From Scenedesmus sp. PABB004 (Eukaryota), in assembly GCA_014905635.1 (NCBI GenBank), contig JABVCE010000009.1, positions 1 through 64,000 on the forward strand: a stretch of DNA of 64,000 nucleotides, read 5' to 3'. Position numbers and translations under genes: made by a program. Below the pieces are notes generated by a model that did no database searches, was not told the DNA's origin, and was given only the letters and a program-made list of their open reading frames with translations. Shown here in pieces: positions 2,697-23,982 of this stretch (its first letter is position 1; every line of letters starts with the position of its first letter).

Positions 2697-3626
2697 GACG
2701 GTAGCCGCGTTGGCGGGCCGATGGAGTTATTGGCGGATGTCTCCCACGTCACGCCGCGCCGTAGACGCGCGCACGTACGAGGTGTACGGACGCCCCGCCT
2801 AGATGTCCGATGCACGCGGCCGAGACGTACGCACACCTACGTACGGCGCGGGGCGGCGGGCGGACGGCGAAGGGGCAAGGCCCCTTTGAAGTTAGCTCAG
2901 GTTTGGAGACACGAGGCGCGCGCTAGCGTAGCGTGCGAGCGTAGCCGAGGCGCACGCGCGGGCGCAAGAGCGGCCGGGCGCGAGCGCGGCGCGCGTTACG
3001 AGTTGGTCGAGGCGCCGAGGGTCGTAGGGGCGCGAGGGTCGAGGGCGCCGAGAGTCGTAGGGCGCGAGGGTCGAGGGCGCCGAGGGTCGTAGGGGCGCGG
3101 GTCGAGGGATGTCCTCCAACGTCACGCCGCCGTGTAGACACGCACGCCCAAGGTGCACGGACGCCCGCCTTGATGACCGATGCGCACGGCCGGGTCGTAC
3201 GTACACCTGTGAGCGGCGCGGGCGGGCGGACGGGCGAAGGGCCGAGGCCCTTGAGCGCGAGAAGAGGCAAAGTCGGCGCGAGAAGGGCCGACGTCGAGCG
3301 CGCGGCGCCGAGTAGATCGAGCGCGGCGCGGGAAGCGCGACGGAGCGCGACGGAGCGCAAACGAGCACGCGCGAGCAAGCGCGGGCGCGATTTACTGCGT
3401 TTGACGAGGGCGACTCAAGTAAAAGAAGTCGCGGACAAGGGGCGATGCCTCTGCCAAGCGCCAAGTAGACAATAGGGCTCTCGAATAGGACGGTGGAGGT
3501 CGCAGGATCGAATCTGGGGCCTTCTTTTGGGGCCGCTTGACGGAGGCCTCCGGAGCTCCGCGGAGTTGTCGAGTTGCCGGAGCGATGCGCGCGAAGCCTC
3601 CGCGATGCCTTTAGAGCACCGGGGAT

Positions 3627-3637
3627 GGCTCATGACC
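3627..3637 (-). promoter_or_regulatory. Primer-binding site, half-tRNA(iMet) type (GGTCATGAGCC)
   Basis: Lies 3 nt after the LTR end. One mismatch from GGTTATGAGCC, the complement of the initiator-tRNA anticodon arm used by hemivirus-type copia elements. Confidence 0.7.
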
Positions 3638-3640
3638 ACT

Positions 3641-3991
3641 TGGTCGGAGTAGGCGCGGTTGTTGCCGGCTAGAAGAGCGAGTCGACAACGGCGGACAGCG
3701 GCGGTTGGCCAACGAGAGAGCACGGAGACACGAGTGAAGGAGCAAAGGTTACATGTGCGTGGTGAAGAGACTCCTTAGGCAAACGGGGCGGGCGCACGGA
3801 GCTATATAGCCGAAACGGTATCGGTAATCGCAGCTTCTCGGCGGCTGCCGGTAGCTGCGCCGTAAGCAGCTTCCACCGCGGTTAGCACCTTCCACAAGAG
3901 CCCAACTAAGCCCCAAAGTTCCGAGTAGCTTCCTTTAGGCTCCATGCACGCAATGGGGTGAGTGTGCGGCCGAAAACACGCACTCTCATCA
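3641..3991 (-). repeat. 5' LTR of copia A (351 bp)
   Basis: Minus strand begins TGATGAGAG and ends CTCCGACCA (TG..CA with imperfect inverted termini). Contains CTATATAG (3802-3809) and a minus-strand TGTAA (3749-3753). The PBS follows 3 nt downstream. Confidence 0.8.
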
Positions 3992-6900
3992 CGCGGGCCG
4001 CGCCCGCCCGCGCGCGCGCCCGCTCGCCGGCGCCGCGGCGCGGCCGCTGCCGTGCGCCGTTTCCCCTGCCCCGCCGCCCCTGCGGAGCGGAGGTGCGCGG
4101 CTCCAACATGCTGCCCGGCCGCGGGCTGCGCCGCCGAGGTCGGCCGCCGCGGGCCGCGCCGCGCCCGGGCCGCGCGCCGCCCGCCGCGCGCCGCGCTCGC
4201 CGGCGCCGCGGCGCGGCGCTGCCGTGCGCCGTTTCCCCTGCCCCGCCGCCCCTGCGGAGCGGAGGTGCGCGGCTCCAACATGCTGCCCGGCCGCGGGCTG
4301 CGCCGCCGAGGTCGGCCGCGGGCGGCCGCGCCGCGCCGCGGGCGCGCGCCGCCCGCGCGCGCGCCGCTCGCCGGCGCCGCGGCGCGGCGCTGCCGTGCGC
4401 CGTTTCCCTGCCCCGCCGCCCCTGCGGAGCGGAGGTGCGCGGCTCCAACATGCTGCCCGGCCGCGGGCTGCGCCGCCGAGGTCGGCCGCCGGCGGCCGCG
4501 CCGCGCCGCGGGCCGCGCGCCGCCCCGCGCGCGCGCGCTCGCCGGCGCCGCGGCGCGGCGCTGCCGTGCGCCGTTTCCCCTGCCCCGCCGCCCCTGCGGA
4601 GCGGAGGTGCGCGGCTCCAACATGCTGCCCGGCCGCGGGCTGCGCCGCCGAGGTCGGCCGCGGGCGGCCGCGCCGCGCCGCGGGCCGCGCGCCGCCCGCG
4701 CGCGCGCCGCTCGCCGGCGCCGCGGCGCGGGCGCTGCCGTGCGCCGTTTCCCCTGCCCCGCCGCCCCTGCGGAGCGGAGGTGCGCGGCTCCAACATGCTG
4801 CCCGGCCGCGGGCTGCGCCGCCGAGGTCGGCCGCGGGCGGCCGCGCCGCGCCGCGGGCCGCGCGCCGCCCGCGCGCGCGCCGCTCGCCGGCGCCGCGGCG
4901 CGGCGCTGCCGTGCGCCGTTTCCCCTGCCCCGCCGCCCCTGCGGAGCGGAGGTGCGCGGCTCCAACATGCTGCCCGGCCGCGGGCTGCGCCGCCGAGGTC
5001 GGCCGCCGGCGGCCGCGCCGCGCCGCGGGCCGCGCGCCGCCCGCGCGCGCGCCGCTCGCCGGCGCCGCGGCGCGGCGCTGCCGTGCGCCGTTTCCCCTGC
5101 CCCGCCGCCCCTGCGGAGCGGAGGTGCGCGGCTCCAACATGCTGCCCGGCCGCGGGCTGCGCCGCCGAGGTCGGCCGCCGGCGGCCGCGCCGCGCCGCGG
5201 GCCGCGCGCCGCCCGCCGCGCGCGCCGCTCGCCGGCGCCGCGGCGCGGCGCTGCCGTGCGCCGTTTCCCCTGCCCCGCCGCCCCTGCGGAGCGGAGGTGC
5301 GCGGCTCCAACATGCTGCCCGGCCGCGGGCTGCGCCGCCGAGGTCGGCCGCGGGGCCGCCGCCGCGCCGCGGGCCGCGCGCCGCCCGCGCGCGCGCGCTC
5401 GCCGGCGCCGCGGCGCGGCGCTGCCGTGCGCCGTTTCCCCTGCCCCGCCGCCCCTGCGGAGCGGAGGTGCGCGGCTCCAACATGCTGCCCGGCCGCGGGC
5501 TGCGCCGCCGAGGTCGGCCGCCGGCGGCCGCGCCGCGCCGCGGGCCGCGCGCCGCCCGCGCGCGCGCCGCTCGCCGGCGCCGCGGCGCGGCGCTGCCGTG
5601 CGCCGTTTCCCCTGCCCCGCCGCCCCTGCGGAGCGGAGGTGCGCGGCTCCAACATGCTGCCCGGCCGCGGGCTGCGCCGCCGAGGTCGGCCGCCGGCGGC
5701 CGCGCCGCGCCGCGGGCCGCGCGCCGCCCGCGCGCGCGCCGCTCGCCGGCGCCGCGGCGCGGCGCTGCCGTGCGCCGTTTCCCCTGCCCCGCCGCCCCTG
5801 CGGAGCGGAGGTGCGCGGCTCCAACATGCTGCCCGGCCGCGGGCTGCGCCGCCGAGGTCGGCCGCCGGCGGCCGCGCCGCGCCGCGGCGCGGCGCGCCGC
5901 CCGCACGCGCGCCGCTCGCCGGCGCCGCGGCGCGGCGCTGCCGTGCGCCGTTTCCCCTGCCCCGCCGCCCCTGCGGAGCGGAGGTGCGCGGCTCCAACAT
6001 GCTGCCCGGCCGCGGGCTGCGCCGCCGAGGTCGGCCGCCGGCGGCCGCGCCGCGCCGCGGGCCGCGCGCCGCCCGCGCGCGCGCCGCTCGCCGGCGCCGC
6101 GGCGCGGCGCTGCCGTGCGCCGTTTCCCCTGCCCCGCCGCCCCTGCGGAGCGGAGGTGCGCGGCTCCAACATGCTGCCCGGCCGCGGGCTGCGCCGCCGA
6201 GGTCGGCCGCCGGCGGCCGCGCCGCGCCGCGGGCCGCGCGCCGCCCGCGCGCGCGCCGCTCGCCGGCGCCGCGGCGCAGCGCTGCCGTGCGCCGTTTCCC
6301 CTGCCCCGCCGCCCCTGCGGAGCGGAGGTGCGCGGCTCCAACATGCTGCCCGGCCGCGGGCTGCGCCGCCGAGGTCGGCCGCCGGCGGCCGCGCCGCGCC
6401 GCGGGCCGCGCGCCGCCCGCGCGCGCGCCGCTCGCCGGCGCCGCGGCGCAGCGCTGCCGTGCGCCGTTTCCCCTGCCCCGCCGCCCCTGCGGAGCGGAGG
6501 TGCGCGGCTCCAACATGCTGCCCGGCCGCGGGCTGCGCCGCCGAGGTCGGCCGCCGGCGGCCGCGCCGCGCCGCGGGCCGCGCGCCGCCCGCGCGCGCGC
6601 CGCTCGCCGGCGCCGCGGCGCGGCGCTGCCGTGCGCCGTTTCCCCTGCCCCGCCGCCCCTGCGGAGCGGAGGTGCGCGGCTCCAACATGCTGCCCGGCCG
6701 CGGGCTGCGCCGCCGAGGTCGGCCGCCGGCGGCCGCGCCGCGCCGCGGGCCGCGCGCCGCCCGCGCGCGCGCCGCTCGCCGGCGCCGCGGCGCGGCGCTG
6801 CCGTGCGCCGTTTCCCCTGCCCCGCCGCCCCTGCGGAGCGGAGGTGCGCGGCTCCAACATGCTGCCCGGCCGCGGGCTGCGCCGCCGAGGTCGGCCGCGG

Positions 6901-9500
6901 GCGGCCGCGCCGCGCCGCGGGCCGCGCGCCGCGCGGCGCGCGCCGCTCGCCGGCGCCGCGGCGCGGCGCTGCCGTGCGCCGTTTCCCCTGCCCCGCCGCC
7001 CCTGCGGAGCGGAGGTGCGCGGCTCCAACATGCTGCCCGGCCGCGGGCTGCGCCGCCGAGGTCGGCCGCGGGCGGCCGCGCCGCGCCGCGGGCCGCGCGC
7101 CGCCCGCGCGCGCGCCGCTCGCCGGCGCCGCGGCGCGGCGCTGCCGTGCGCCGTTTCCCTGCCCCGCCGCCCCTGCGGAGCGGAGGTGCGCGGCTCCAAC
7201 ATGCTGCCCGGCCGCGGGCTGCGCCGCCGAGGTCGGCCGCCGGCGGCCGCGCCGCGCCGCGGGCCGCGCGCCGCCCGCGCGCGCGCCGCTCGCCGGCGCC
7301 GCGGCGCGGCGCTGCCGTGCGCCGTTTCCCCTGCCCCGCCGCCCCTGCGGAGCGGAGGTGCGCGGCTCCAACATGCTGCCCGGCCGCGGGCTGCGCCGCC
7401 GAGGTCGGCCGCCGGCGGCCGCGCCGCGCCGCGGGCCGCGCGCCGCCCGCGCGCGCGCCGCTCGCCGGCGCCGCGGCGCGGCGCTGCCGTGCGCCGTTTC
7501 CCCTGCCCCGCCGCCCCTGCGGAGCGGAGGTGCGCGGCTCCAACATGCTGCCCGGCCGCGGGCTGCGCCGCCGAGGTCGGCCGCCGGCGGCCGCGCCGCG
7601 CCGCGGCGCGGCGCGCCGCCCGCGCGCGCGCCGCTCGCCGGCGCCGCGGCGCGGCGCTGCCGTGCGCCGTTTCCCCTGCCCCGCCGCCCCTGCGGAGCGG
7701 AGGTGCGCGGCTCCAACATGCTGCCCGGCCGCGGGCTGCGCCGCCGAGGTCGGCCGCCGGCGGCCGCGCCGCGCCGCGGGCCGCGCGCCGCCCGCGCGCG
7801 CGCCGCTCGCCGGCGCCGCGGCGCGGCGCTGCCGTGCGCCGTTTCCCCTGCCCCGCCGCCCCTGCGGAGCGGAGGTGCGCGGCTCCAACATGCTGCCCGG
7901 CCGCGGGCTGCGCCGCCGAGGTCGGCCGCCGGCGGCCGCGCCGCGCCGCGGGCCGCGCGCCGCCCGCGCGCGCGCCCGCTCGCCGGCGCCGCGGCGCGGC
8001 GCTGCCGTGCGCCGTTTCCCCTGCCCCGCCGCCCCTGCGGAGCGGAGGTGCGCGGCTCCAACATGCTGCCCGGCCGCGGGCTGCGCCGCCGAGGTCGGCC
8101 GCCGGCGGCCGCGCCGCGCCGCGGGCCGCGCGCCGCCCGCGCGCGCGCCGCTCGCCGGCGCCGCGGCGCGGCGCTGCCGTGCGCCGTTTCCCCTGCCCCG
8201 CCGCCCCTGCGGAGCGGAGGTGCGCGGCTCCAACATGCTGCCCGGCCGCGGGCTGCGCCGCCGAGGTCGGCCGCCGGCGGCCGCGCCGCGCCGCGGGCCG
8301 CGCGCCGCCCGCGCGCGCGCCGCTCGCCGGCGCCGCGGCGCGGCGCTGCCGTGCGCCGTTTCCCCTGCCCCGCCGCCCCTGCGGAGCGGAGGTGCGCGGC
8401 TCCAACATGCTGCCCGGCCGCGGGCTGCGCCGCCGAGGTCGGCCGCGGGCGGCCGCGCCGCGCCGCGGGCCGCGCGCCGCCCGCGCGCGCGCCGCTCGCC
8501 GGCGCCGCGGCGCGGCGCTGCCGTGCGCCGTTTCCCCTGCCCCGCCGCCCCTGCGGAGCGGAGGTGCGCGGCTCCGACATGCTGCCCGGCCGCGGGCTGC
8601 GCCGCCGAGGTCGGCCGCCGGCGGCCGCGCCGCGCCGCGGGCCGCGCGCCGCCCGCGCGCGCGCCGCTCGCCGGCGCCGCGGCGCGGCGCTGCCGTGCGC
8701 CGTTTCCCCTGCCCCGCCGCCCCTGCGGAGCGGAGGTGCGCGGCTCCAACATGCTGCCCGGCCGCGGGCTGCGCCGCCGAGGTCGGCCGCGGGCGGCCGC
8801 GCCGCGCCGCGGGCCGCGCGCCGCCCGCGCGCGCGCCGCTCGCCGGCGCCGCGGCGCGGCGCTGCCGTGCGCCGTTTCCCCTGCCCCGCCGCCCCTGCGG
8901 AGCGGAGGTGCGCGGCTCCAACATGCTGCCCGGCCGCGGGCTGCGCCGCCGAGGTCGGCCGCCGGCGGCCGCGCCGCGCCGGGGCCGCGCGCCGCCCGCG
9001 CGCGCGCCGCTCGCCGGCGCCGCGGCGCGGCGCTGCCGTGCGCCGTTTCCCCTGCCCCGCCGCCCCTGCGGAGCGGAGGTGCGCGGCTCCAACATGCTGC
9101 CCGGCCGCGGGCTGCGCCGCCGAGGTCGGCCGCCGGCGGCCGCGCCGCGCCGCGGGCCGCGCGCCGCCCGCGCGCGCGCCGCTCGCCGGCGCCGCGGCGC
9201 GGCGCTGCCGTGCGCCGTTTCCCCTGCCCCGCCGCCCCTGCGGAGCGGAGGTGCGCGGCTCCAACATGCTGCCCGGCCGCGGGCTGCGCCGCCGAGGTCG
9301 GCCGCCGGCGGCCGCGCCGCGCCGCGGGCCGCGCGCCGCCCGCGCGCGCGCCGGTCGCTGGCGCCGCGGCGCGGCGCTGCCGTGCGCCGTTTCGTTTTTT
9401 TTTTTTTTGTTACAATGGGTGACCAGACAAGGACCGAGGCCCATGGGCAGCCCATTGATCGTGCGCCGTTTCCCCTGCCCCGCCGCCCCTGCGGAGCGGA
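3992..9500. repeat. 172-bp tandem satellite, ~31 copies, ~88% GC
   Basis: Marker CTCCAACATG recurs at 4101, 4273, 4443, 4615, 4788, 4960 ... 9259 (spacing 170-173). Units are nearly identical. Confidence 0.98.
9394..9459 (-). mobile_element. 66-bp 5'-truncated non-LTR element (family B) with poly(A) tail and 13-bp TSD
   Basis: Minus strand ...GGTCACCCATTGTAAC(A)14. Flanked by CGTGCGCCGTTTC at 9381-9393 and 9460-9472, inside the last satellite unit. Confidence 0.9.
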
Positions 9501-10287: not shown

Positions 10288-12018
10288 TCAAACTCTGCGG
10301 CGTGCATGGAACCCTGCCTCGCATGAGGGCAGCATGAGCGCCGGGCGGCGGCGCGCCGCGCCCGCGGCGCGCCCGCGCGCGGTCCACGGCCGGCGCCGTG
10401 GCCCCGCCGGCGGGGCCAGCGCCGGCGCCGCCGGCAGCGCCGGCACGCCCGCTGCGGTGAGCCGGAACTCCATTGTGAAGCGGCCCCCGTGCTGGCCCGT
10501 GCGCGCGATGACCCCCCGGTGGCACCACCGGCGTTCGAAATCTGCCTGAGTGAGCTCCTTGCCGGAGCCCGACAGCCAGGAGCGCGGCACGCCCGCCAGC
10601 GCGCGCACGTCCATCGCTGCCTTGCGCCAGTCCAGCACGACTGCGTCGCGCACCGAGTACACAAAGATGCGAATCGCCGCCACAGGCGCGTGCCCGGGCT
10701 CGCCGCCGCCGTGCCGCGCGCGCGCGGCGAGCAGGGCGCGCAGCAGCAGCAGGCGGAGGTGCGTCTTTTTTTTTTTGTTGTTGTTACAATGGGTGACCAG
10801 ACAAGGACCGAGGCCCAGGGGCAGCCCACTGAAAAAAGCTCCAACGGGAAGAGCGCAGCAACCCCTCGTGAAAAACCGCGCCCCGGCGCCCCCCGAGAGG
10901 GGGCCCACACATCACCCAACGGTACAGCGAGAGAGGCGGAGGTGCTTCCAGAGCTGCTGCAGCTCCGGCGCGACGCCCGACCTGGCAAAGTCGTCCGCCA
11001 GCATCACCCTGGGCGGGGGCGGCGCGCGCGGGAAGCCCGGCTGCAGCCGTGCCCACAGGTGAGCAAACCACTGCAGCACCGCCGCCGCCACGGGGCAGCC
11101 GCCGAGGACGTGGCCGAGCGTCTCCAGCGGCGGCTGCTGCTGCGCGCGGCAGAGCGGGTGCGGGCACGCCAGCTCCGCCAGCTCCGGCGCCGCGCGCTGG
11201 TAAGAGAAGACCCTGTCGCCGCTGACGCGCACCCCGCCGTGCAGCAGGCTCCAGCCAAAGTGTCGCAGGGCGCGCGGCATGCGCGCCTGCTGCGCGCGCG
11301 CGTAGCAGGCGGCCCAGGCGGGCGGCTCCGCGCGCTCGCCGGCGCGCGCCGGCGCAGTCGCACCAGTGAGCGGGTCGACGAGGTCGTTGGCCGCCAGCTC
11401 CTGAACCAGGGTCCTGCGCTGCTCCAGCTGCTGCTCCCGCCACTGCTCCTGCTCCTCGCTCCGCGCCGCGGCGGCAGCGGCCGCCGCCGGCCCGACGCGC
11501 TCCATGACGTGGCGCCGCGGGGGCGAGACTTTCTGCCACGCCGGCAGCCCAGGCTCCGGGTCTGGCGTCTCGGCTCGCTGCCGCACCGCCCAGCTGCGCT
11601 TCCGGCCCGCCTCCCGCCGCGCGATGGCGCTGGCCGGGCATGCCTGGCCGTAGCCGGCGCGCCAGAGGCCCGGCACGCAGCCAACGCCGGGCGTCCAGCC
11701 CCGTGCCGGCGTGACCTCGCGCGCGCAGCGCAGCTGCAGCAGCCGCAGGGTCGCGCCGCGCACCGTAAACTGCATGACCGTGGCCGCGTGCCCGAGCCCC
11801 CACACGGAGGGGTCGACGCGGACGCCAGGCCAAAAGCCCACGAGGAACCAGCGCCGCGCCCTGCTGTGCATCTCCGGCTGCTCCGCCGGCGCCGCTGCCC
11901 CGGGCGCTCCGGCCGCCGCGCGCTGCGCGCCCGCCGCTGGCCGCGGCGCCTGCGCCGCGTCCACCACGCAGCAGTCCTCCCACCCCCCCGCCGCGACTGC
12001 CTCGGGCGGGGGCTCGGC
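10288..12018 (-). mobile_element. 5'-truncated L1-like LINE, ORF2 C-terminal region with zf-RVT-like CCHC motif
   Basis: FGWSLLHG...CPHPLC...LETLGHVLGGCPVA...LWKHLRL. The reading frame resumes after the insertion as HLRLLLLRALL...VVLDW. Confidence 0.75.
10763..10933 (-). mobile_element. 171-bp 5'-truncated family B copy with 12-bp TSD, inserted in the L1-like ORF
   Basis: AGGCGGAGGTGC at 10751-10762 and 10934-10945. Tail TGTAACAACAAC(A)11 on the minus strand. Confidence 0.9.
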
Positions 12019-15000
12019 GGTGCGGCACGCCTTGTGCTTGACCTCGGGCAGCCCCTTGGTCAGCACATCGGCGACCATGTCAGCGGTTGGCAGATAGGCA
12101 AAGCTCACCTCCCCGCGCACGACGCGCTCGCGCGCAAAGCAGTACGCGACGTCAATGTGCTTGGTGCGGGCTGAGCTGATGGGGTTGTGCAGCAGCTTGA
12201 TGGCTGCTTGGTTGTCGGCCCATATGCTGATGGTGTTGGCGTTGCGCGAGCCCAGCTCACGCAGCAGGTTGCGTAGCCAAAGGGCCTCTTTGACCGCGGC
12301 AGCGGCAGCCACATACTCAGCCTCGGCCGTGGAGACCGAGACGGTCTTCTGCCGCTGGCTGCACCAGGAGACAGCGCCGCCGCCCATGGTGAACACAAAG
12401 GCGGAGGTGGAGCGGCGCGTGTCGGGGCAGCCCGCGTAGTCTGCGTCGGTGTAACCGACCAAGTGCAGGCCCGCGGGGCCGCCCGAGTAGTTGATGCCCA
12501 ACTCAGCCGTGCCTGCGAGGTAGCGCAGCAGCCCCTTGGCTGCCTGCCAGTGCACGGTGGTGGGCTTGGCCATGAAGCGCGCCAGCACGCTCGCAGTGTG
12601 CGCGATGTCGGGTCGCAGCGAGGTGGCGAGGTACATAGCAGCGCCGACCAGCGCAGAGTAGTGGAACTCCTCGGTGTTGAGGGGCTCGCCGCTGGTGTTG
12701 GAGAGGTGCAGGCCCGCCTGCATCGGCAGGCGGCGGGGCTTGACGTCGCCCATGTCGAAGCGCTCCAACAGCCCGTAGATCAGCCTCGGGTTGCAGAGCT
12801 TCATGGTGCGCGCGGCGCGGTTGCGCTCGATGGTCATGCCGAGGAAGCAGCTCGCGGGGCCGAGGTCGCGGCCCTCGAACGCGTTGAGCAGGCGCGCGGT
12901 GAAGTGCGCGGCCAGGTCAGCGCGCGGCGTGACGACCAGGATGTCGTCGACGTAAACGAGCAGGATGATGAAGGAGCCCTCCTTGTAGAGGTAGTACACG
13001 CAGGGGTCAGCCGCGGTCTGGGCAAAGCCCATGGCAACCAGCTCGGCGTGCAGCCGCTGGTTCCACACGCGCGGCGCCTGCTTGAGGCCGTAGAGCGAGC
13101 GCCGCAGGCGGCAGGCGAGCGCAGAGCCGTGCTCACCAAAGCCGGGCGGCTGCTGCATCCACACCTCTTCTTCAAGGTGGCCGTTGAGGAAGGCGGTCTT
13201 GATGTCCAAGTGCCTGACCTCCCAGTCGTGCGCGGCCGCGGCGGCCATCAGCGCGCGGAAGGTCTGATACTTGATGACGGGGCTGAACACGTCGTTGTAG
13301 TCGATGCCGGCGCGCTGGTGAAAACCCTTGATGACCAGCCGCGCCTTGAAGCGCTCGATGTTGCCGGCGGCGTCGCGCTTGAGCGTGAAGACCCACTTGC
13401 ATGGGATGGCCTTGACCCCGGGCGGCTTGGTCTGCAGCTCCCACGTACGGTTGGCGTGGAGAGAGGCCAGCTCCTCAGCCATGGCGGCGATCCAGTCTGC
13501 CACCTGCGGGGAGTTGATGGCCTCGTCGTAGCTGGTAGGCTCGACGATGCTGCTGCCAGACGTGTCGGTGGTGAGCAGCGCGCTCTGCGGCTGCTCCACC
13601 ACAGGGAAGGCGTCGGCGCGCAGCTGCCCAGGAATCGCAAGCGGCTGCACAGGAACTGCAGACCGCGCGGCGATGCGCGCGCTGCGCCTGGGCGCCGTGA
13701 CCAGCGGCTGCCTCTCAGCGGGCGCGACTGGCTGCCGCTGCGACTGCCCAGGAATCAGCCTCGCTGCGTTGCCGCCGCTGCTGGGCGAGTGCCCAGAGCT
13801 GCTGGGCGCCTGACCAGGGCTGTCGCCCGAGTCGCCAAATGAGTCGCCAACGCTGACAAATGTGTCGCTGGCGCTGCTGTAGCTGCTGATGCTGCTCAGG
13901 TTGCCTGACTCGCTGCTGCAAAGCGCGCCGGCAGTGTCGCCAGCGTCGCCAGGGTCGCCGGCAGCGTCGCCAGCGTCGCCAGCATCGCCGGCAGCAGCGC
14001 CCGAGCTGCTGGGGGGGCTGAGAGAGCCACCAGCGCCGGTGTTGCCTGCGGGCAGGAGCGGCACGCCGCTGCCGATCACGAGCGGCGAGCTCGGGGGCGA
14101 GCTCACCAGGTTGGCGTCGGTCGCGCCGGCAGTCGTGCGCGCGCGGCCGGGCAGGTCAGACTCGTCGAAGCGGACGTGGCGAGAGGTCACGAACTTGCCG
14201 TTGTCGAGCCGCACGCGCCAGCCGTCGGTGGTGCTCACACCAAAGGAGGGGTAGCCGAGGAACACGCCGGGCTGAGCGCTGGGCTCCAGCTTGGTACGCA
14301 GCGCGGCAGGCGTGTGCACGTAGGCGCGGCAGCCAAACACGCGCAGGCGCGAGGCGTCGGGCTTGGTGCCAAAGAAGAGCTCCCACGGCGTCTTGGACTT
14401 GCCGTCCGCGGGCAGCACGTTGCGCAGAAAGTTGGCGGTGTGGAAGGCCTCAGCCCACACGGTCTTGGGCAGGCCCGCCGCCTTGAGCATCGCGACGGCG
14501 CTCTCGAGCAGCGTGCGGTTGAGCCGCTCAGCCTTGCCGTTGGAGGCGGGGCTGTAGGGCGTGGTGAACTGGTGGCTGGTGCCCTTGGTGGCGAGGTAGG
14601 CGTGCAACTCGGTGGAGTTGTACTCGCCTCCATTGTCCGAGCGCAGCACCTTTACACGGTTGCCGGTCGCGGTCATGATCAAAGGAATGGTCTCTTTGAG
14701 GAAGTTCGTCACGTAGCTCTTGGAGGCCAGCGGCACGAAGAAGGAGAAGCCCGTCGCGTCGTCAATTAGAGTGACGTGGTAGCGGCTGCCGCCGGCTGAG
14801 CGTACGCCGGTGTCGCCGACATCGGTGTGCAGCAGCTCACCTGGCCCAAAGTTGTTGGGGCCGGTCGGCTTGAAGGGCCGCTCGCTGGACTTGACCATGG
14901 CGCAGGTAGGGCAGATGTGGGAGGCGCCGTAGTCCTTGACCGTGGAGGCAGACAGCGGGAAGTTGACGGCCAGGTCGTCGCGCGCGATCCGCGCGATGCG

Positions 15001-15578
15001 GTCGCAGCCGGCGTGGCCGTAGCGCGCGCGCCAGAGGCGGCACTCGCTCTCGGTGTCGTGGAGCGTGAGCAGGCTGACGGGCTCGTAGCAGAGGCTCTTG
15101 AGGTTCTCGAGCGACGGGACGTAGTCGCAGGTGAAGCTGCACACGCCGTTGGCGCTGCGCTGCGCGCGCAGCACGGGCAGCGTGTCGTCGTCGCTGTAGA
15201 TGAGGGTCGCCGCGCCCTTCATCATGACGCTGTTGGCGGCGAGCTCGGGCACGTAGAGCACCGTCAGCCCATGTCGGTGACCTTGGACAGGGAGAGCAGG
15301 TTGGCGGCGAGCTCGGGCACGTAGAGCACGTTGAAGAGCGCAAACACGCGCTCGTTGGGGATGGTGATGAAGATGTTCCCGATGCCCTTGATCTCGATGG
15401 TCTCGCCGCTCGTGGTGTGCACCACGCCGCCGCTCGGCCGGAGCTCGAAGAAGGCCTCCCGGCTGCAGCACATGTGCTGCGTCGCGCCGGAGTCGGTGAA
15501 CCACTCGCGGTCGTCGCGCGGCGCGGGCGCGTCGCCCGTCGCCATCCACGCCACGTTGAGGCCGGCGTTGTTGCCCAT
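12019..15578 (-). mobile_element. Ty1/copia element B pol (protease-integrase-RT-RNase H), no LTRs seen
   Basis: WFTDSGATQHM, LLHTDVG, LRSDNGGEY, NGKAERLNRTL, HLDIKTAFLNG, SLYGLKQAPR, VYVDD, YTDADYAG, RTKHIDV and MVADVLTK. One frameshift near 15265. Confidence 0.95.
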
Positions 15579-15583
15579 GGGCC

Positions 15584-15930
15584 GTGAGCGCCGTCATCAA
15601 GGGCGAGTTCCACACGTACCGGACCACTGCCGACGTGTGGGCTGCGCTCGAGGAGCAGAACGCTGAGATCGCCTCCGCGCGCACCGGCGACTCCCTCGAG
15701 CAGCTCGCGACCATCACCTTCAACCCGAGCTCCGGCATGCCCGACTACATCAAGCGCGCCAAGGCCCTGCGCACCAAGCTCGCCAAGGTGGACTTCCAGG
15801 TCGAGGACCACATCATGATCACCCACCTGCTGCGGGGGCTCCGGCGCGCGCCGGAGTACACCTTCACCTGCGAGTCGATCGGGAAAGACCTCGCCCGTGG
15901 GCAGATCGCGCTGCAGGAGGTGTACCAACA
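15584..15930 (+). pseudogene. copia gag (UBN2-like) fragment, inverted relative to the adjacent pol
   Basis: TTADVWAALEEQ...MPDYIKRAKALRTKL...MITHLLRGL resembles the copia gag core. Confidence 0.7.
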
Positions 15931-17653: not shown

Positions 17654-17812
17654 CGTTATCTGCTTGGTGACCTGCTGCAGGATCAGCTTGCTGTTCACTC
17701 TGTGGCAGATTATGTGATGGACATCCGGAAGATGCGGGACACCGTCCTTAAGGGGCGCGGGACCAATGGGCGCGAGCCTGTGGTGTAACTATCTTTATCT
17801 TTATCTTTATCT
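17654..17812 (+). mobile_element. 3'-terminal fragment of LINE family A with (TATCTT)n tail
   Basis: Matches 22791-22943 with 2 substitutions in the body. Confidence 0.92.
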
Positions 17813-20800
17813 AGCTCGGCTGGCGCCTCGTGGTATGCGAGGACGGCCGCGCCCTGCCTGCTCAGCCGCCCCTGCCCACAGACGCCAACCCCTACGCAGC
17901 GCTCGCCGATGCTGCCGCCGCCGAGGCGACGCCGGACAGCGGCGCCGAGTGCAGCACGGCTCCCCCGCGCCTGCACGGCAGCATCGTGTGCAAGCACTTT
18001 GCTGGCCACGGCGACTTCTACGGCGTGGTGCTCAAGATCCGCGGCGCCCGCGGCCCCTACGCCTACCGTGTGCACTACACCGACGGCGAGGACGAGACGA
18101 TGACGGAGGAGGAGGCGCGGGGCCACCTTGCCGGCAGCGTGCCAGCAGCGCACGCGGTGCACGCGCTGCGCGCGCGCCTGCTGCCGCCGACGCCCGCAGA
18201 TGGCGTGGTCGTCAAGAAGTACTTCCGGTCGCACCGGCAGCACTTTTACGGCGTGCTCACTGTCCGGCCGCCCTTCTTTGCCGTAGCCTACACCGACGGC
18301 GACGCGGAGGACATGGACGCCGGCGAGGCTGCGCGGCACGCGGTCGCCGACGCGCCCGAGCTCGCGCCGCACGGGGCTGGGCTCGCCGCGCGCGGCGCGC
18401 GCGCTGACCTCTACCCCCTTGCCGCCGCCGCGGCCGCTCAGCTCGCGCTTGGCGCCGACGCGCCCGAGGCGGCGCCGGCCGCTGCGACCGCCGCCCCGGC
18501 TGCCGGGGCGGCGGCCGCCGACGTGCCGCTCGCACCGGAGCGCGCCCCGGCGGCCGACGACGCAGCGCGGGCGCGCCGCGCGTGCCCCGCCTACACCGAC
18601 CGCCGCATGCGCCGCCGCCACGCAGGCCTCGTACGCGCCGCCAACCTGGCGTGGGCCCGCGCGGGGCTCCGCGTGGCGTGCATCAACGTCTGCGGCATGA
18701 CCAGGCTGAAGGCTGCCGAGCTCGCCGCTGCTACGACGGCGCTCTGCATCGACATCCTCGCCGTCGTCGAGACCTGGGAGGGCCACCCCTGCGTCGCCCA
18801 CGAGCTGCCTGGCTACACCTTCATTGGCAAGCCGCGCAGCCGGGGGCAGGGCGGGGGCGTGGGCTTTTACGTCGCGCGCGCGCGCTGGCCCCGCTCGTGC
18901 GCGCACACGCCGACACGCAACTGCCCGAGGCGCTCTGGCTGGAGCTTCGCCGCGGCGGCAGCGCCGCGGCCGCGCGGCCGGCGTTTGTCGGCGTCGTCTA
19001 CCTGCCGCCGGCGTCGCTGGAGAGCGCCGCGCTGCGGGCCGACACCTACGCGCAACTGCAGACGGACATCCAGAGGTTCCAGGAGCGGGGCGAGGTGCTG
19101 GTGCTTGGCGACTTCAACAGCTCCGTGGGCAGCAGCGCGCCAGCGGAGCAGCAGGCGGACCAGCCGCCGGCGCGCATCGGGCAGTGTGGGGAGAGCGGCG
19201 CGCCCGACGCGGCGGGCCAGGCCCTGCTGGCCATGCTCGACGCCACTGACCTGTACGCCCTCAACGGGCGCGCGCCCACCGCCACCGGCCTGCCTGCCTA
19301 CACCCGCGCCCGCCTCGTGTGCGGCGCTGACGGCACGCACACCGAGCAGTGCTCGGTGCTCGACTACGTCCTCGCGCCCGCGGCGTGGGCGCTCCCCTCC
19401 AGCCGCGGCCCGGCGCCCTGCGCCCTGACCGTGGCCGACGATCGGCGCATCACCAAGTCTGACCACCTGCTGCTGTGGACCTGCCTGCCTCACCCCGCCG
19501 CCCGCGCGCGCGCCCCCGCGGGCCTGCGCCGCCGCGTCGCGCGCACCGACCTGCTCAAGCCGGTCCCGGGGCAGCGCGATGCGGGGCATGCCGATGCCTA
19601 CCGCGCGGAGCTCGCCGACGCGCTGGCCGACTACGCCGACGACGTGGCTGCCCTCGCCGACCAGGTGGGCAGCGCGCTGCTGCCGGCGCGCGAGGCGTGC
19701 GCGCGCGCCAAGGCTGCGCTGTGCGATGCCACTTGGACGGCGGTCGATGGCAGCGTCGGCTACAGGGAGGTGCGCTCGGGCGGTGGCGGCGGCAGCGCCG
19801 CCGCCGCGCGGCGCATCTTCACGCCGGTGGTCCAGGCCGCCGTGCAGGCGCGCCGCGACGCCGATGTCGCGCTGGCGGCCGCCCGGGGGGCGGCCGCCGG
19901 CGGCGACGCTGACGCCGCCCCTGCCCAGGCTGCTGCCGAGCTTGCCGCCGCGCAGGACCAGCTGTGCGCCGCACAGCGGGCTGTCAAGTCTGCCGTGGCG
20001 GCTGCGCGCGCAGCGGAGCTCGGCCGCCGCGTTGACGCGGTTCACGCCCGTCACGCGGCAGGCGACGGCAAGGGCATGTGGGAGCAGCTGCGCCAGATTG
20101 CCGGCACTGCCAGGCGGGGCCCTGGCGGCCCCGCAGCGCTGCGCGCTGCTGACAGCACTGGCATGGTTGTGGGCGAGCGGCAGATCGCAGACGCCCTGGC
20201 AGCGCAGTACGCCAGTGTCAGCGACCCCGCGGCGTTTGCTGCCGGGGCAGACTTTGACGAGCAGTGGCGCGAGCAGGTCGAGGCGGACGTGGCGCGCTAC
20301 CGCGCCGCCGCCTCTGACCCCAGCGGCAGCGACAGCGATCAGGACCCCCTCAGCGCCGACATCACCGCCGCCGAGGTCGCAGCCCAGGCGCAGGCCCTCT
20401 CCAACAACAAGGCCCCCAGCCCGCTCGACGGCGTCACCAACGAGCTGCTCAAGTACGGCGGCGAGCCCCTTTGGGGCGCGCTGGCCGCCTTCTTCAACCT
20501 GCAGCTCACCCTGGAGACCAAGGCCCAGACCGCCGGCGTCATCACCCCGATCTGCAAGCGCGGCGACCCGACCGACCCCGCCAACTAAGATAAAGATAAA
20601 GATAAAGATAGTTACACCACAGGCTCGCGCCCATTGGTCCCGCGCCCCCTAAGGACGGTGTCCCGCCAACTACCGCCCCATCACGCTCGGCTCCGCGGTG
20701 GACAAGCTCTACAACCTCGTGCTCAACAAGCGCCTCACCGACCACCTTGAGGGCCACGGCCTGCTGCACGACGCGCAGCAGGGCTTCCGGCCCGGGCGCA

Positions 20801-22943
20801 GCGCCGCCGACAACATCTTCATGCTCACCTCCTGCCTCGACGCCCGCGCCGCGCAGGGACTCGACACCTACGTACTGTTCCTTGACATCGCCAAGGCCTA
20901 CGACACCGTGTGGCGCTCCGGCCTGCTTCACAACCTCTGGCGCGTGGGCGTGCGCGGCCGCATGTTCCGCGTGCTCGCCAACATGACCGACCGCACGCGC
21001 AGCATGGTGCGGCACCGCGGCGCGCTGTCGACAGCCTTTGAGCCGGGCCTTGGGTGGGAGCAGGGCGACACGCTGGCGACTACGATGTTCAACGTCTTCA
21101 TCAACGCCGTGCTCCAGGAGGTGTGGGCCGCCTGCCCGGGCGTGCCGCTGCCCGCCGCGCCCGCGCCCGCGCCCGCCGCGCCGCCCGCGCCGCCCGCCGG
21201 CGCGGCGCCACCCGCGCCCGAGCCAGGCGCCGCCGACGACAAGCTGGTCGCGCTCCTCTTTGCGGACGACTGCGCGAGCCTTGCGGCCGGCCCGGCGGAG
21301 ATGCAGCAGCTCCTTGGCGCCACGCGCGCCGCGCTCGCCCGCTGGCGGCTCAAGGCCAGTGTCAGCTCGGCGGACGCGTCCGCCGAGCTGACAGCGGTGA
21401 CGGTGGTGCCGGGGGCCGCACCCGGCGTGCCGTCGCTGCGGCGGCTGCTGCCGCGGCGGCCTACCAGTGGTCGTGGGGCGCGGAGCAGGTGCCGCGCGTC
21501 ACTGGGTACAGGTACCTGGGCGCGTGGCTGACGGCCGACCGCAGCGCCCGCAGCTGGGACGCCCACCTGCAGCGCCGCAAGGCTGCTGCGGACAAGGCGT
21601 TCTGGGCTCAGTCGGCGGTGTTGCGCGAGCGGCGCCTGCCGCTGCGCCTGCGCCTGCTCACGCTCACGGGCGTGGTGCAGCCTGTGTTGACGCACGCGGC
21701 CCAGGTCTGGGCACGCCCCACGGTCGAGCGCCGCGCGGAGCTCGACTCGTGGCAAGCGGGGCTGGTGGCGCGCGCGACCGGGTGCCCGCCCAACGTGTCG
21801 CACGCGTGCCTGCAGCAGGAGCTGGGCATCACCCCGCTGCATGTCGTCTGCGACACCCTCATGCTGCGCTACTGGCACCGCCTGCGCGCCCTGCCAGCCG
21901 ACCGCCTGCTGCGCCGTGTTGCCGACGCCTGGCCCGCCACGCCGTGGTGGAAGGGCGTGGGCGGCCTCCTGCGGGACTACGGCGTCGATGTTGTGGCTAC
22001 TGCTGGCATGAGCCGCAACGAGTTTGCTGCTCACCTTTGCGACCTTGCTGGCGACCACATCGATGGCGCCTGGGAGGCCGCCGCCGGCCGCGGCTCGGTG
22101 GCGCGGCGCTACCGGGAGGCCTTTGGCAGCGGCGTCTTCTCTACTCGCTCCTTCACGCGCCGCGCCGGCGTGCCGTGCGCCCGGGACTACCTGGGCTGGC
22201 TTTGCAGCCCCGGCGGCCCGCGGCGCGGCCGGCCGGCGGAGCTGCTCATGCGCCTGCGCATGGAGTGCCTCCCGCTGCGCGCTGCCCACAGCCACGCGCG
22301 CCGGGGGGAGTCGATCGCGCAGCAGGCGGAGCGGGAGCGCTGCCCCTGCTGCGCGGCGCGCGCGCCCGAATCGGCCGCGCACTTTCTCTTTGAGTGCGGC
22401 GCGCCCGGCCGCCCTGCACGCCTCGTTGCGCTGCTTGCGGACCTCCGTGCCAGCGGCGGGGGCGCGCATGCTGGCGCGCTGGCTGCGCACCTGCGTGCGG
22501 CTGGTGTTGAGATGGCGGCTAGCGGCAGCCAGGAGCTGGAGGCTGGAGCTGGCGGCGGCGGCAGCGGCAGCGTCAGCGACCCCGGCGTCGTGGCTAGCGC
22601 GGCGGCCCCTCGGGCTGCTGACGCAGGCGCGGCGGTCAGCGATAGCGGCGTCACGGCTGATACGGCGGCCCCTCGGGCTGATGATGTCAGCGCGGCGGTC
22701 AGCGTCAGCAACGTCTCTGCTGGTGCGGCGGCCCCTCGGGCTGCCGTTACCGGCGCGGCGAGTCGGTGTGCAGCACTAGAGCAGGCTCGGCGTTATCTGC
22801 TTGGTGACCTGCTGCAGGATCAGCTTGCTGTTCACTATGTGGCAGATTATGTGATGGACATCTGGAAGATGCGGGACACCGTCCTTAAGGGGCGCGGGAC
22901 CAATGGGCGCGAGCCTGTGGTGTAACTATCTTTGTCTTTGTCT
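17813..22943 (+). mobile_element. RTE/RTEX-like LINE (family A): tandem Tudor-like domains - AP endonuclease - RT - CCHC
   Basis: APE motifs INVCG, IDILAVVETW, GGGVGFYV, VLGDFN, LDYV, SDH. RT motifs NYRPITL, QQGFRPGRS, FLDIAKAYDTV, QGD, LFADD, YRYLG. C-terminal CPCC..ESAAHFLFEC. Microsatellite tail. Frameshifts near 18880 and 21430 and an insertion at 20588. Clade assignment is tentative. Confidence 0.92.
20588..20661 (-). mobile_element. Antisense 3'-end fragment of family A inserted into its own RT, 11-bp TSD
   Basis: Reverse complement of ACACCGTCCTTA.GGGGCGCGGGACCAATGGGCGCGAGCCTGTGGTGTAAC(TATCTT)n. CCCGCCAACTA at 20577-20587 and 20662-20672. Splits DPAN|YRPITL. Confidence 0.93.
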
Positions 22944-22989
22944 ATGTGCGCGAGCATACGGGGTAAATGACCTTGACTTTGACCTTGAC

Positions 22990-23785
22990 CGCGCGCGGGC
23001 GTGCGGCGGGCGCGCCGCGGCGCGCGGCCGGCGGCGCGCTTGGCGCCAGTGCTGCCGGCGCTGCGGCCTTTCTGAATGGCCCGCGCCCCCAGGCGGTGCC
23101 AGGGCCCTCTCTCTCCGCGCGGCATGGCCGCCAAACACTCTCCGCGGCGCTGCGCGGCACGGCGGGGCCGGCCGTGGGACCGCGCGCGGTCCCACGCGGC
23201 GCGCGGCTGGCGGCGCGCCCGGCGCCAGCGCCTGTGCTGGCTGCCCGCGGCCTTTCTGAATGGCGGCGCCCCCCAGGCGGTGCCAGGCCCTCTCTCTCCG
23301 CGCGGCATGGCCGCCAAACACTCTCCGCGGCGTTGCGCGGCGCGGCGGCGCCGGCCGTGGGACCGCGCGCGGGCGTGCGGCGGGCGCGCCGCGGCGCGCG
23401 GCCGGCGGCGCGCCCGGCGCCAGCGCCCGTGCTGCCGGCGCTGCGGCATTTTTGAATGGAGCGCGCCCCCCAGGCGGTGCCAGGGCCCTCCCTCTCCACG
23501 CGGCATGGCCGCAAAACACTCTCCGTGGCGCTGCGCTGCGCGGCGGCGCCGGCCGTGGGACCGCGCGCGGGCGCGCGGCGGGCGCGCCGCGGCGCGCGGC
23601 CGGCGGCGCGCTTGGCGCCAGTGCTGCCCGCAACCCTTTCGAGTGGCGCGCGCCCCCACGCGGTGCCAGGCTAGTCCCTCTTTGCGCGCATGGCGGCCGA
23701 ACACTCTCCGTGGCGCTGCGCGGCACGGCGGCGCCGGCTGTGGGACCGCGCGCGGGCGCGCGGCGGGCGCGCCGCTGCCCGGCGC
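22990..23785. repeat. Diverged tandem repeat, ~183-198-bp unit, ~4 copies
   Basis: AACACTCTCCG recurs at ~23134, 23317, 23515 and 23700, each with GCATGGC upstream and TGGGACCGCGCGCGG downstream. Confidence 0.88.
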
Positions 23786-23982
23786 GGGTGTTGTTGTTGT
23801 TGTCGTCGATGCTGTGCCGGCAGCGCAGGGTTTACATGCCTGCCGGCTGCCCTTTCCGCGGTTGGCACGCCGTACGTGAGCAAGCAGTGCGCTCCGACCC
23901 ACCACTATGACCGTTCAATGCGCTCGCAGTCCCGCAACGGCGAGCACACCCACCGCATCCACGCCGCGCGTGCCCTATGCGC

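Follow-up and report, generated by a model that had tools for sequence, protein, structure and literature searches.

Long interspersed nuclear elements (LINEs) of the L1/Tx1 type have a C-terminal Cys-His motif after the reverse transcriptase (RT) and an RRM-type ORF1 protein. Target choice by LINEs is usually ascribed to the sequence preference of their endonuclease. Chromatin-reader-targeted integration is established for long terminal repeat (LTR) elements, the chromoviruses, and we know of no LINE with a histone-reader domain. In green algae, the LINE Zepp ends in a poly(A) tail, and it was reportedly described as a self-nesting element by Higashiyama in 1997. The LINE described here was found in positions 1 to 64,000 of contig JABVCE010000009.1 of Scenedesmus sp. 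PABB004 (GenBank assembly GCA_014905635.1), and this whole stretch is referred to as the window. The main LINE copy occupies 17813..22947 on the forward strand. It encodes two modules of the Tudor type in frame upstream of its apurinic/apyrimidinic endonuclease (APE) start.

The element resembles green-algal L1/Tx1-type LINEs, including Zepp and ZeppL, in the order APE, RT, and Cys-His knuckle, in an upstream RRM-like domain, in frequent 5' truncation, and in its location in a repeat island. Zepp and ZeppL insert into their own copies and form arrays of 3' ends; the window has two 5'-truncated fragments, 159 bp and 79 bp long, in or next to a single copy. It differs from L1/Tx1 LINEs in that all domains are in one open reading frame (ORF), the RRM-like part is fused rather than a separate ORF1, and the Tudor modules lie between the RRM-like part and the APE. 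Its tail is a (TATCTT)n-type repeat, unlike the poly(A) tail of Zepp. Craig et al. (2021, PMC8226300) describe the self-nesting Zepp and ZeppL elements of green algae. The term Tudor was not found in the listed papers that mention Zepp or ZeppL.

The chromoviruses are Ty3/Gypsy LTR elements with a C-terminal integrase chromodomain. They share with the LINE a reader fold of the royal family fused to the protein that cuts for integration, and the analogy is functional. The element in the window is a non-LTR element that would use target-primed reverse transcription (TPRT). Its Tudor domain, unlike the chromodomain, is N-terminal to the nuclease. The element lacks an LTR, an integrase, and a chromodomain, and it was not classed as a chromovirus. 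Targeting has been demonstrated for chromoviruses, while here it is suggested by analogy. The Ectocarpus element Gypsy-10_Ec32 carries a C-terminal Tudor domain and, to its authors' knowledge, is the first transposable element (TE) reported with one (2025; PMC12477816). That element belongs to the LTR class, comes from a brown alga, and has one Tudor at its C-terminus, whereas the green-algal LINE lineage has one or two N-terminal modules. The modules also resemble algal and plant host proteins of the PTM/DIR17 type (PF21743), with 32-42% identity to the multi-Tudor host-type proteins P0015-P0018, the SET protein P0022, the Myb protein P0030, and the RdRP P0038. All of these are cellular proteins of chromatin or silencing, and they have neither APE nor RT.

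The window element belongs to a young, multi-copy LINE family with a single ORF, from a very GC-rich chlorophycean alga, and this copy is 5'-truncated and has decayed recently. It is truncated at ...LGWRLVVCEDG and contains two frameshifts and one insertion. Compared with the family protein P0043, about 310 N-terminal codons and the 5' untranslated region are gone. The ORF frame follows a TAG stop at 17812-17814 and is open from 17815 through 19428. It contains both modules and the APE start LRVACINV (18667-18690), 852 nt (284 codons) past the frame opening. An earlier note on this DNA had reported two related modules in frame upstream of the APE start, and this was borne out. Continuity with the APE holds at its start and is lost farther on, where two additional bases in a (GC)n run near 18873 put the rest out of frame. 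The extra 2 bp were missing from the contigs of three of four metagenome runs, and the fourth run gave no cover there. These contigs came from four freshwater-metagenome runs, all of one study, and were aligned to the element. One of them reaches 423 nt farther 5' than the window copy. No in-frame ATG precedes the modules in the window copy, because it is truncated at LGWRL (17815). The sequencing runs listed as containing the element (14 rows from 8 studies) included no RNA run.

The two modules are separated by a short linker. Module 1, the distal module (17965..18138, +, ORF aa 51-108), reads LHGSIVCKHF...YRVHYTDGEDETM. It scored 50 bits with the module hidden Markov model (HMM) described below, and its strands are predicted at model residues 17-56 with a predicted local distance difference test score (pLDDT) of 82-91. 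The inter-module linker VPAAHAVHALRARLLP (18139..18189, +) appears helical in the alignment and in the model (helix 72-82). Module 2, the APE-proximal module (18190..18351, +, ORF aa 126-179), reads DGVVVKKYF...VAYTDGDAEDM. It contains the best PF21743 stretch (aa 130-171) and scored 77 bits with the HMM. The helix of the linker, W(S/E/D)xVP...L..L, is conserved after every module in the window (18139-18189) and in relatives, which makes the repeat unit about 75 residues rather than 50.

By curated sequence match plus predicted fold, the modules are Tudor domains. A Pfam-A scan of the window ORF matched PF21743 (PTM_DIR17_Tudor) in two stretches, with an E value of 1.1e-08 and 35.2 bits against a gathering cutoff of 27.2, and the PTM/DIR17-like identity given in the earlier note is thereby upheld. 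The module HMM, whose training set was limited to the APE-proximal modules of 12 family members, detected the distal module in the 97%-identical P0001 as well (47.6 bits; E 3.8e-15). The similarity of the two modules is therefore far greater than chance would give. Module 1 contains the candidate cage residues F62, Y69, Y88, and D90 (numbering from 17815), and in module 2, F137, G146, D161, and D163 are invariant in 12/12 alignment rows. The consensus of 40 modules is g..v.kr@.......@GVa...p....P@v@.v.YtDgd.Etm...eV, where @ is an aromatic residue. Three aromatic columns and an Asp are conserved in at least 80% of these modules; these F, Y, Y, and D columns match W/Y/Y/D of the lamin-B receptor Tudor in a non-significant alignment. 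The linkers between modules could not be aligned across the family, unlike the key module residues (F, aromatic-G-V, and Y-x-D-x-D-x-E). A phmmer search of the PDB with the tandem region gave no match at E <= 10. With a profile of 18 proximal modules, the best PDB match was the lamin-B receptor Tudor over its full domain, and it was non-significant (E 0.082).

The structure of window positions 17935-18372 was predicted with AlphaFold2 from a 12-row family alignment. The model had a mean pLDDT of 79.6 and contained two units, each of four strands and then a helix. The top Foldseek matches in the PDB were the BAHCC1 tandem Tudor with H4K20me1 (E 5.5e-04), SETDB1 Tudors, the 53BP1 tandem Tudor, and the AGDP1 Agenet domain. 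TM-scores were low because the two barrels were differently oriented. Single barrels were compared with VIA-align and gave Z scores of 5.0-5.7 (model residues 85-146 for module 2), with a root mean square deviation of 2.0-2.6 A over about 50 residues. Partners at these scores were the Tudors of BAHCC1, TDRD2, JMJD2A, Arabidopsis RDM15, PHF1, PHF20, and SMN. The SH3/Tudor fold check proposed earlier thus gave two predicted SH3-like barrels whose best PDB matches are tandem Tudor readers.

The same architecture was found as one continuous ORF in many relatives. An exhaustive HMMER protein search with window 17815-18885 as the query retrieved 42 proteins at E <= 0.001. The best match was P0001, which contains 1,763 aa and is 97% identical to the window copy. 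It clusters with P0043 (1,911 aa) and P0044, and P0043 and P0001 are 97-99% identical to the window copy. All three are Scenedesmus sp. PABB004 gene models that carry the name "LINE-1 reverse transcriptase-like," and two more models, P0069 and P0070, are members of this family. Named gene models of the family lie on six different contigs of this genome, which speaks neither for nor against the single cluster per chromosome, coinciding with CENH3, that marks the centromeric Zepp and ZeppL elements. The P0070 model tracks the breaks of the window copy itself. Continuous ORFs of at least 1,700 aa (range, 1,700-1,937 aa) were present in 14 further clusters at 90% identity (P0002/P0047, P0005, P0006, P0056, P0068, P0071, P0073, P0078, P0080, P0082, P0086, P0088, P0089, and P0093). 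These ORFs were called without introns on short contigs from Logan, ENA, and JGI, and they have the same part order. They are the stronger evidence because some PABB004 gene models are chimeric: P0070 fuses a Copia-like exon to the LINE, and P0069 fuses two LINEs.

The metagenome contig L002 (59.5% GC) contains one open frame at 572-4900 with a Met at 857. It encodes the N-terminal region, two modules, APE, and RT. A scan of metagenome loci gave 15 loci; the Tudor region was covered by L002 alone, and the other 14 matched the APE part only. With this frame and the long ORFs, the proposed check that Tudor, APE, and RT form a single ORF came out positive. The shared order is a short N-terminal beta domain, an RRM-like domain, an NRF(A/S)xL motif, the Tudor module or modules with the helix, an Arg-rich stretch, APE, RT, and a Cys-His knuckle. 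Intact proteins contain one or two Tudor modules, perhaps three, and 430-680 residues precede the APE. The named organisms among the protein matches listed were Scenedesmus sp. PABB004 and Chlamydomonas sp. UWO 241, the latter with one protein that lacks the module.

The module is conserved across the lineage. The module HMM found at least one module in 23/23 LINE representatives, which are 33-44% identical to the window in the Tudor-APE part. Two clear modules were found in 14 of them, a weak second module (6-9 bits) in 3, and one module in 6. The RT tree contained 43 rows and was built with a quick IQ-TREE run under LG+G4. Its input was 51 proteins with at least 400 residues of RT coverage, minus 8 that were near-duplicates or, in one case, a chimera. 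All 20 module-bearing rows fell in one RT clade, with a support of 100 in the Shimodaira-Hasegawa-like approximate likelihood ratio test. The 11 clade rows without a module all start at or inside the APE (RT begins at residue 586 or before) and are uninformative either way. Every clade member that keeps its N-terminus (20/20) carries the module, and the module was therefore present at the base of the clade at the latest. Outside the clade the module was found in 0/12 rows, yet just one of the 12 has a long N-terminus.

Selection was assessed from differences between the window copy and the metagenome contigs. Of 62 differences, 40 were listed; 37 were classified and 3 in an indel zone were skipped. 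Synonymous differences made up 21 of the 37, and 16 were not synonymous, where 8.1 synonymous were expected with the same change types placed randomly in the ORF (P ~5e-06). Judged by this excess, the ORF has evolved under purifying selection. The two differences inside modules (18141 and 18261) were both synonymous third positions. Selection on the modules themselves rests on between-family conservation, because only these 2 differences fall there. As the comparisons among relatives indicate, the Tudor domain is an old, selected part of the LINE lineage and not a one-off capture.

The copy in the window retains little of the region upstream of the modules. A remnant of the RRM-like region (last strand LGWRLVV) and an NRF-type motif, here NPYAALAD (17887-17910), lie at 17815..17964 (+); they were assigned from the family alignment, with the fold taken from the homologous L002 region. 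In L002, the N-terminal region has a pLDDT of 93-96 at residues 100-205 and is predicted to form a beta-alpha-alpha-beta-beta-alpha-alpha-beta domain. Foldseek gave no match to the N-terminal model at E <= 0.001. VIA-align of this domain against 48,161 chains ranked three structures of the human L1 ORF1p RRM (Z 5.7, 5.4, and 5.2) near the top, tied with generic RRMs. The N-terminal domain appears to be RRM-like with middling scores, and the link to ORF1p is a lead only. A beta-hairpin domain with the pattern GP...V/W..AWR is predicted at the very N-terminus, before the RRM-like part, with a pLDDT of about 90 or more (L002:1013-1150; also P0043, P0005, P0056, and P0071). It had no Pfam match.

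Downstream of module 2 is an Ala/Pro-rich linker (18352..18666, +) with the basic end RRMRRRH (18601-18621). The alignment has a run of RRRRRR there in relatives, and the basic stretch before the APE is possibly a nuclear localization signal. The APE (18667..19500, +) matched PF03372 with 25.8 bits and contains an SDH motif at 19458-19466; the frameshift lies in its (GC)n run at about 18873-18881. The RT (20668..21530, +) matched RVT_1 (PF00078) with 88.3 bits. It contains NYRPITL at 20668 and FADD at 21259-21270, and its frame is broken by small indels at 21382-21410. The C-terminal Cys-His knuckle CPCCAARAPESAAHFLFEC (22341..22397, +) has the pattern CxxC...HxxxxC. Its match to zf-RVT was weak: the window copy scored 12.1 bits, and P0078 and P0080 reached 17.5-18.7 bits, all below the cutoff of 27.5. 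The copy ends with a TAA stop and the short degenerate tail CTATCTTTGTCTTTGTCTATGT (22923..22947, +). The hallmarks of an APE-type LINE are present: one protein has the APE N-terminal to the RT, and copies show 5' truncation, a target-site duplication, and a tail at the 3' end.

The size of the family proteins, the N-terminal extension, the knuckle, and the annotation names look more like L1/Tx1 than RTE. RTE and RTEX elements typically have a short single ORF of about 1,000 aa, with the APE at its start and without a Cys-His domain at the C-terminus. The RTE/RTEX framing used earlier did not survive, and RTE assignment was rejected on the length of the proteins, the long region before the APE, and the C-terminal knuckle. 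Relatives are annotated as "LINE-1 reverse transcriptase-like" and "transposon TX1 protein" (NCBI names). Comparison of the RT with the PDB does not separate L1 from R2: P0043 matched L1 ORF2p with E 2e-15 and R2 with E 2e-13, and R2 was slightly better with a profile.

We consider it slightly better than an even chance (probability about 0.55), by analogy, that the Tudor modules are a reader guiding the target choice of the LINE. They would tether the LINE protein or its ribonucleoprotein (RNP) to nucleosomes or proteins with a particular methyl mark. Tethering would place the adjacent APE nick and TPRT in a preferred type of chromatin, probably repeat-rich silent chromatin. The element would then be a LINE counterpart to the chromovirus chromodomain-integrase, and heterochromatin targeting is plausible on that analogy. 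A narrower proposal is tentative. It holds that a green-algal LINE lineage steers TPRT via tandem Tudors to a specific methyl mark, such as H4K20me or H3K9me, in islands that are rich in satellites and TEs and may be centromeric.

Several points weigh against guidance by a reader. The mechanism is argued by analogy. The cage residues named in the earlier note (F57, F63, Y79, Y83, D85, and others) fit an ORF counted from 17830, five codons past 17815, and to that extent they stand; at the fourth and last canonical cage position, however, the modules have an acidic residue (Asp or Glu) in place of an aromatic one. PF21743 reached its cutoff in just 5 of 26 LINE proteins scanned, with 3 more below it; scores above the cutoff besides that of the window were 31.9 (P0001), 41.6 (P0011), 36.5 (P0078), and 40.1 bits (P0082). 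The structural neighbors read differing marks (H4K20me1/2, H3K9me2, H3K4me1, H3K36me3, and methyl-arginine). Spt5 KOW domains tie with Tudors (VIA-align Z 5.5), and the fold by itself therefore says just "SH3-like barrel." The mixed ligands of the neighbors and this tie do not point to any one ligand or ligand class. The Tudor region contributes just 2 of the 37 classified differences. Self-insertion can also be explained by APE sequence preference or tail annealing, without a reader. The host gene TTL lies about 3 kb to the right of the end of the LINE and its island. An RT fragment is present inside the host gene model P0099 of Scenedesmus sp. PABB004, a 2,222-aa "CA1" model with a P-type ATPase and other host domains. 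That stretch is 97% identical over 26% of the 501-residue RT query, and it is either a piece of the LINE that lies in or next to a host gene or the product of merged gene models.

The modules may do something other than guide insertion. The Tudors could bind a methylated non-histone partner, such as Arg-methylated RNP proteins as in SMN and TDRD, or a host factor. They would then serve an ORF1-like role in RNP assembly, nuclear import, or protection from silencing. Their position directly after the RRM-like domain would suit such a role, as would the human L1 ORF1p RRM among the structural matches of that domain. The Tudors of SMN, TDRD1/2, Tudor-SN, Krimper, and Papi match on a par with histone readers (Z 4.8-5.5), and the acidic residues of DxDxE could suit methyl-arginine or a basic peptide. 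PF21743 and the secondary Pfam families that match relatives (Tudor_3/Crb2, LBR_tudor, Tudor_5/SETDB1, Agenet, and SGF29) are, however, of chromatin-reader types. Among host proteins, the PF21743 domain occurs on enzymes of chromatin or silencing (SET, Myb, and RdRP), and the extended-Tudor SN-like scaffold is absent from the predicted model. We regard this non-histone role as unlikely. Binding of nucleic acid is less probable still. In that case the modules would be SH3/KOW-like barrels that hold the LINE RNA or target DNA and read no methyl mark. Along with the Spt5 KOW domains, a PWWP-ssDNA complex ties with the Tudors (Z 5.5), and all VIA-align Z scores are below 8, a range where scores may reflect common arrangement alone. 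The sequence match to the Tudor family nevertheless exceeds the curated threshold. The conserved columns are canonical cage positions (an aromatic at the end of beta1, an aromatic before G-V in beta2, and Y and D in beta3-beta4) and not basic surface residues.

It is very improbable that the Tudor region is a one-off host capture, or an artifact of prediction or assembly, with no role in the element. The partly chimeric NCBI gene models (P0070 and P0069) could produce such an impression. The window DNA itself has the Tudor modules and APE start in one frame, and the same architecture is present in L002 and in many intron-free ORFs on short contigs. The 23/23 representatives keep the module at identities as low as 33-44%, as does the RT clade as a whole, and synonymous differences are in excess. 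Capture and artifact were rejected on these grounds, within the reach of these data, and the refuting condition of a one-off host capture named earlier did not hold. Guidance by a Tudor reader is the favored function.

A LINE lineage with a built-in Tudor domain of the chromatin-reader type seems not to have been described before. No Tudor-bearing LINE was found in the searched literature on Tudor with LINE, non-LTR, chromodomain, algae, or PF21743; Repbase, Dfam, and repeat-library supplements lay outside that search. The statement that no well-described Tudor-APE-RT LINE is known agrees with this result. The accessible parts of PMC12477816, PMC8226300, 10.1101/2025.03.28.645958, PMC12636532, and 10.64898/2026.05.21.726589 contained no Tudor LINE. 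The literature search found just two papers that name PF21743 and no paper on its ligand. A minority of the family proteins (5 of 26) reach the Pfam cutoff, which would explain why routine annotation overlooked the architecture.

The conserved Tudor-APE fusion provides a directly testable case of reader-guided TPRT. The domain is small, the candidate cage residues are clear, and the family is young and of many copies, all of which make a test tractable. If the narrower proposal on a specific methyl mark is correct, this would be the first chromatin-mark-guided non-LTR retrotransposon, and it would give a handle on the pile-up of Zepp-like LINEs in single repeat islands. The fusion bears on the origin of LINE-rich, centromere-like islands in green algae and extends a growing set of epigenetic modules that transposons have taken over. 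A separate protein, P0026, was found on a 9,412-nt Logan contig. It is a 2,363-aa Helitron-type protein with Helitron_like_N and a PIF1 helicase, and it contains three C-terminal PF21743 stretches (84.7 bits). The reader family is therefore present in an unrelated TE class as well. If confirmed, P0026 would indicate repeated capture of the PF21743 domain by unrelated TE classes.

The LINE family inserts into and beside its own copies. Two truncated fragments, of 159 bp and 79 bp, lie within or abut one 5.3-kb copy, and one has a target duplication and a confirmed empty site. The 79-bp fragment (20588-20666) is a 5'-truncated, reversed copy of the 3' end of the element, with 98.7% identity. With its 8-bp target duplication GCCAACTA (20580-20587 and 20667-20674) it spans 20580..20674 (-). 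It splits the RT motif ...DPAN|YRPITL, and its excision restores ...DPANYRPITL. The empty site (joint 20576->20662) was present in 4/4 metagenome runs. The 159-bp fragment (17654..17812, +) is a 5'-truncated copy of the same LINE. It contains the last 44 codons, a TAA at 17786-17788, and a (TATCTT)n-type tail, and it is seen as a direct repeat of 17654-17806 and 22791-22943 at 97%. The 5' end of the main copy abuts the tail of this fragment. The self-insertions proposed earlier are thus real. In the P0069 and P0001 models, on different contigs, a Tudor-LINE start (with the full N-terminus in P0069) directly follows the C-terminus of another LINE with its own Cys-His knuckle. This arrangement points either to nesting behind the 3' end of another LINE family or to a composite that was duplicated.

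The LINE lies in a repeat island that takes up the left 24 kb of the window. To this extent the description of a gene-free satellite and TE island is accurate; the island is small, and it borders host genes about 3 kb from the element. Host genes begin at about 26 kb with TTL (26.4-29.8 kb) and include a mitochondrial carrier, a proteasome subunit, IMPDH, an XPD-like helicase, and a choline transporter. The GC content of the window is 0.65-0.89 per 2 kb. Domain matches identify Copia gag and pre-integrase pieces at 775-2667 (-). A Copia pol ORF of 1,610 aa with rve, SH3_retrovirus, and RVT_2 lies at 10915-15744 (-). Directly 3' of the LINE tail is a tandem repeat of about 180-198 bp (22987-23900) in 4-5 copies that are 67-97% identical. 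Between the two Copia coding stretches is a 172-bp satellite (3889-9500). It contains about 31 copies that are mostly 95-100% identical, with a GC content of 88%. Its period is near nucleosome size.

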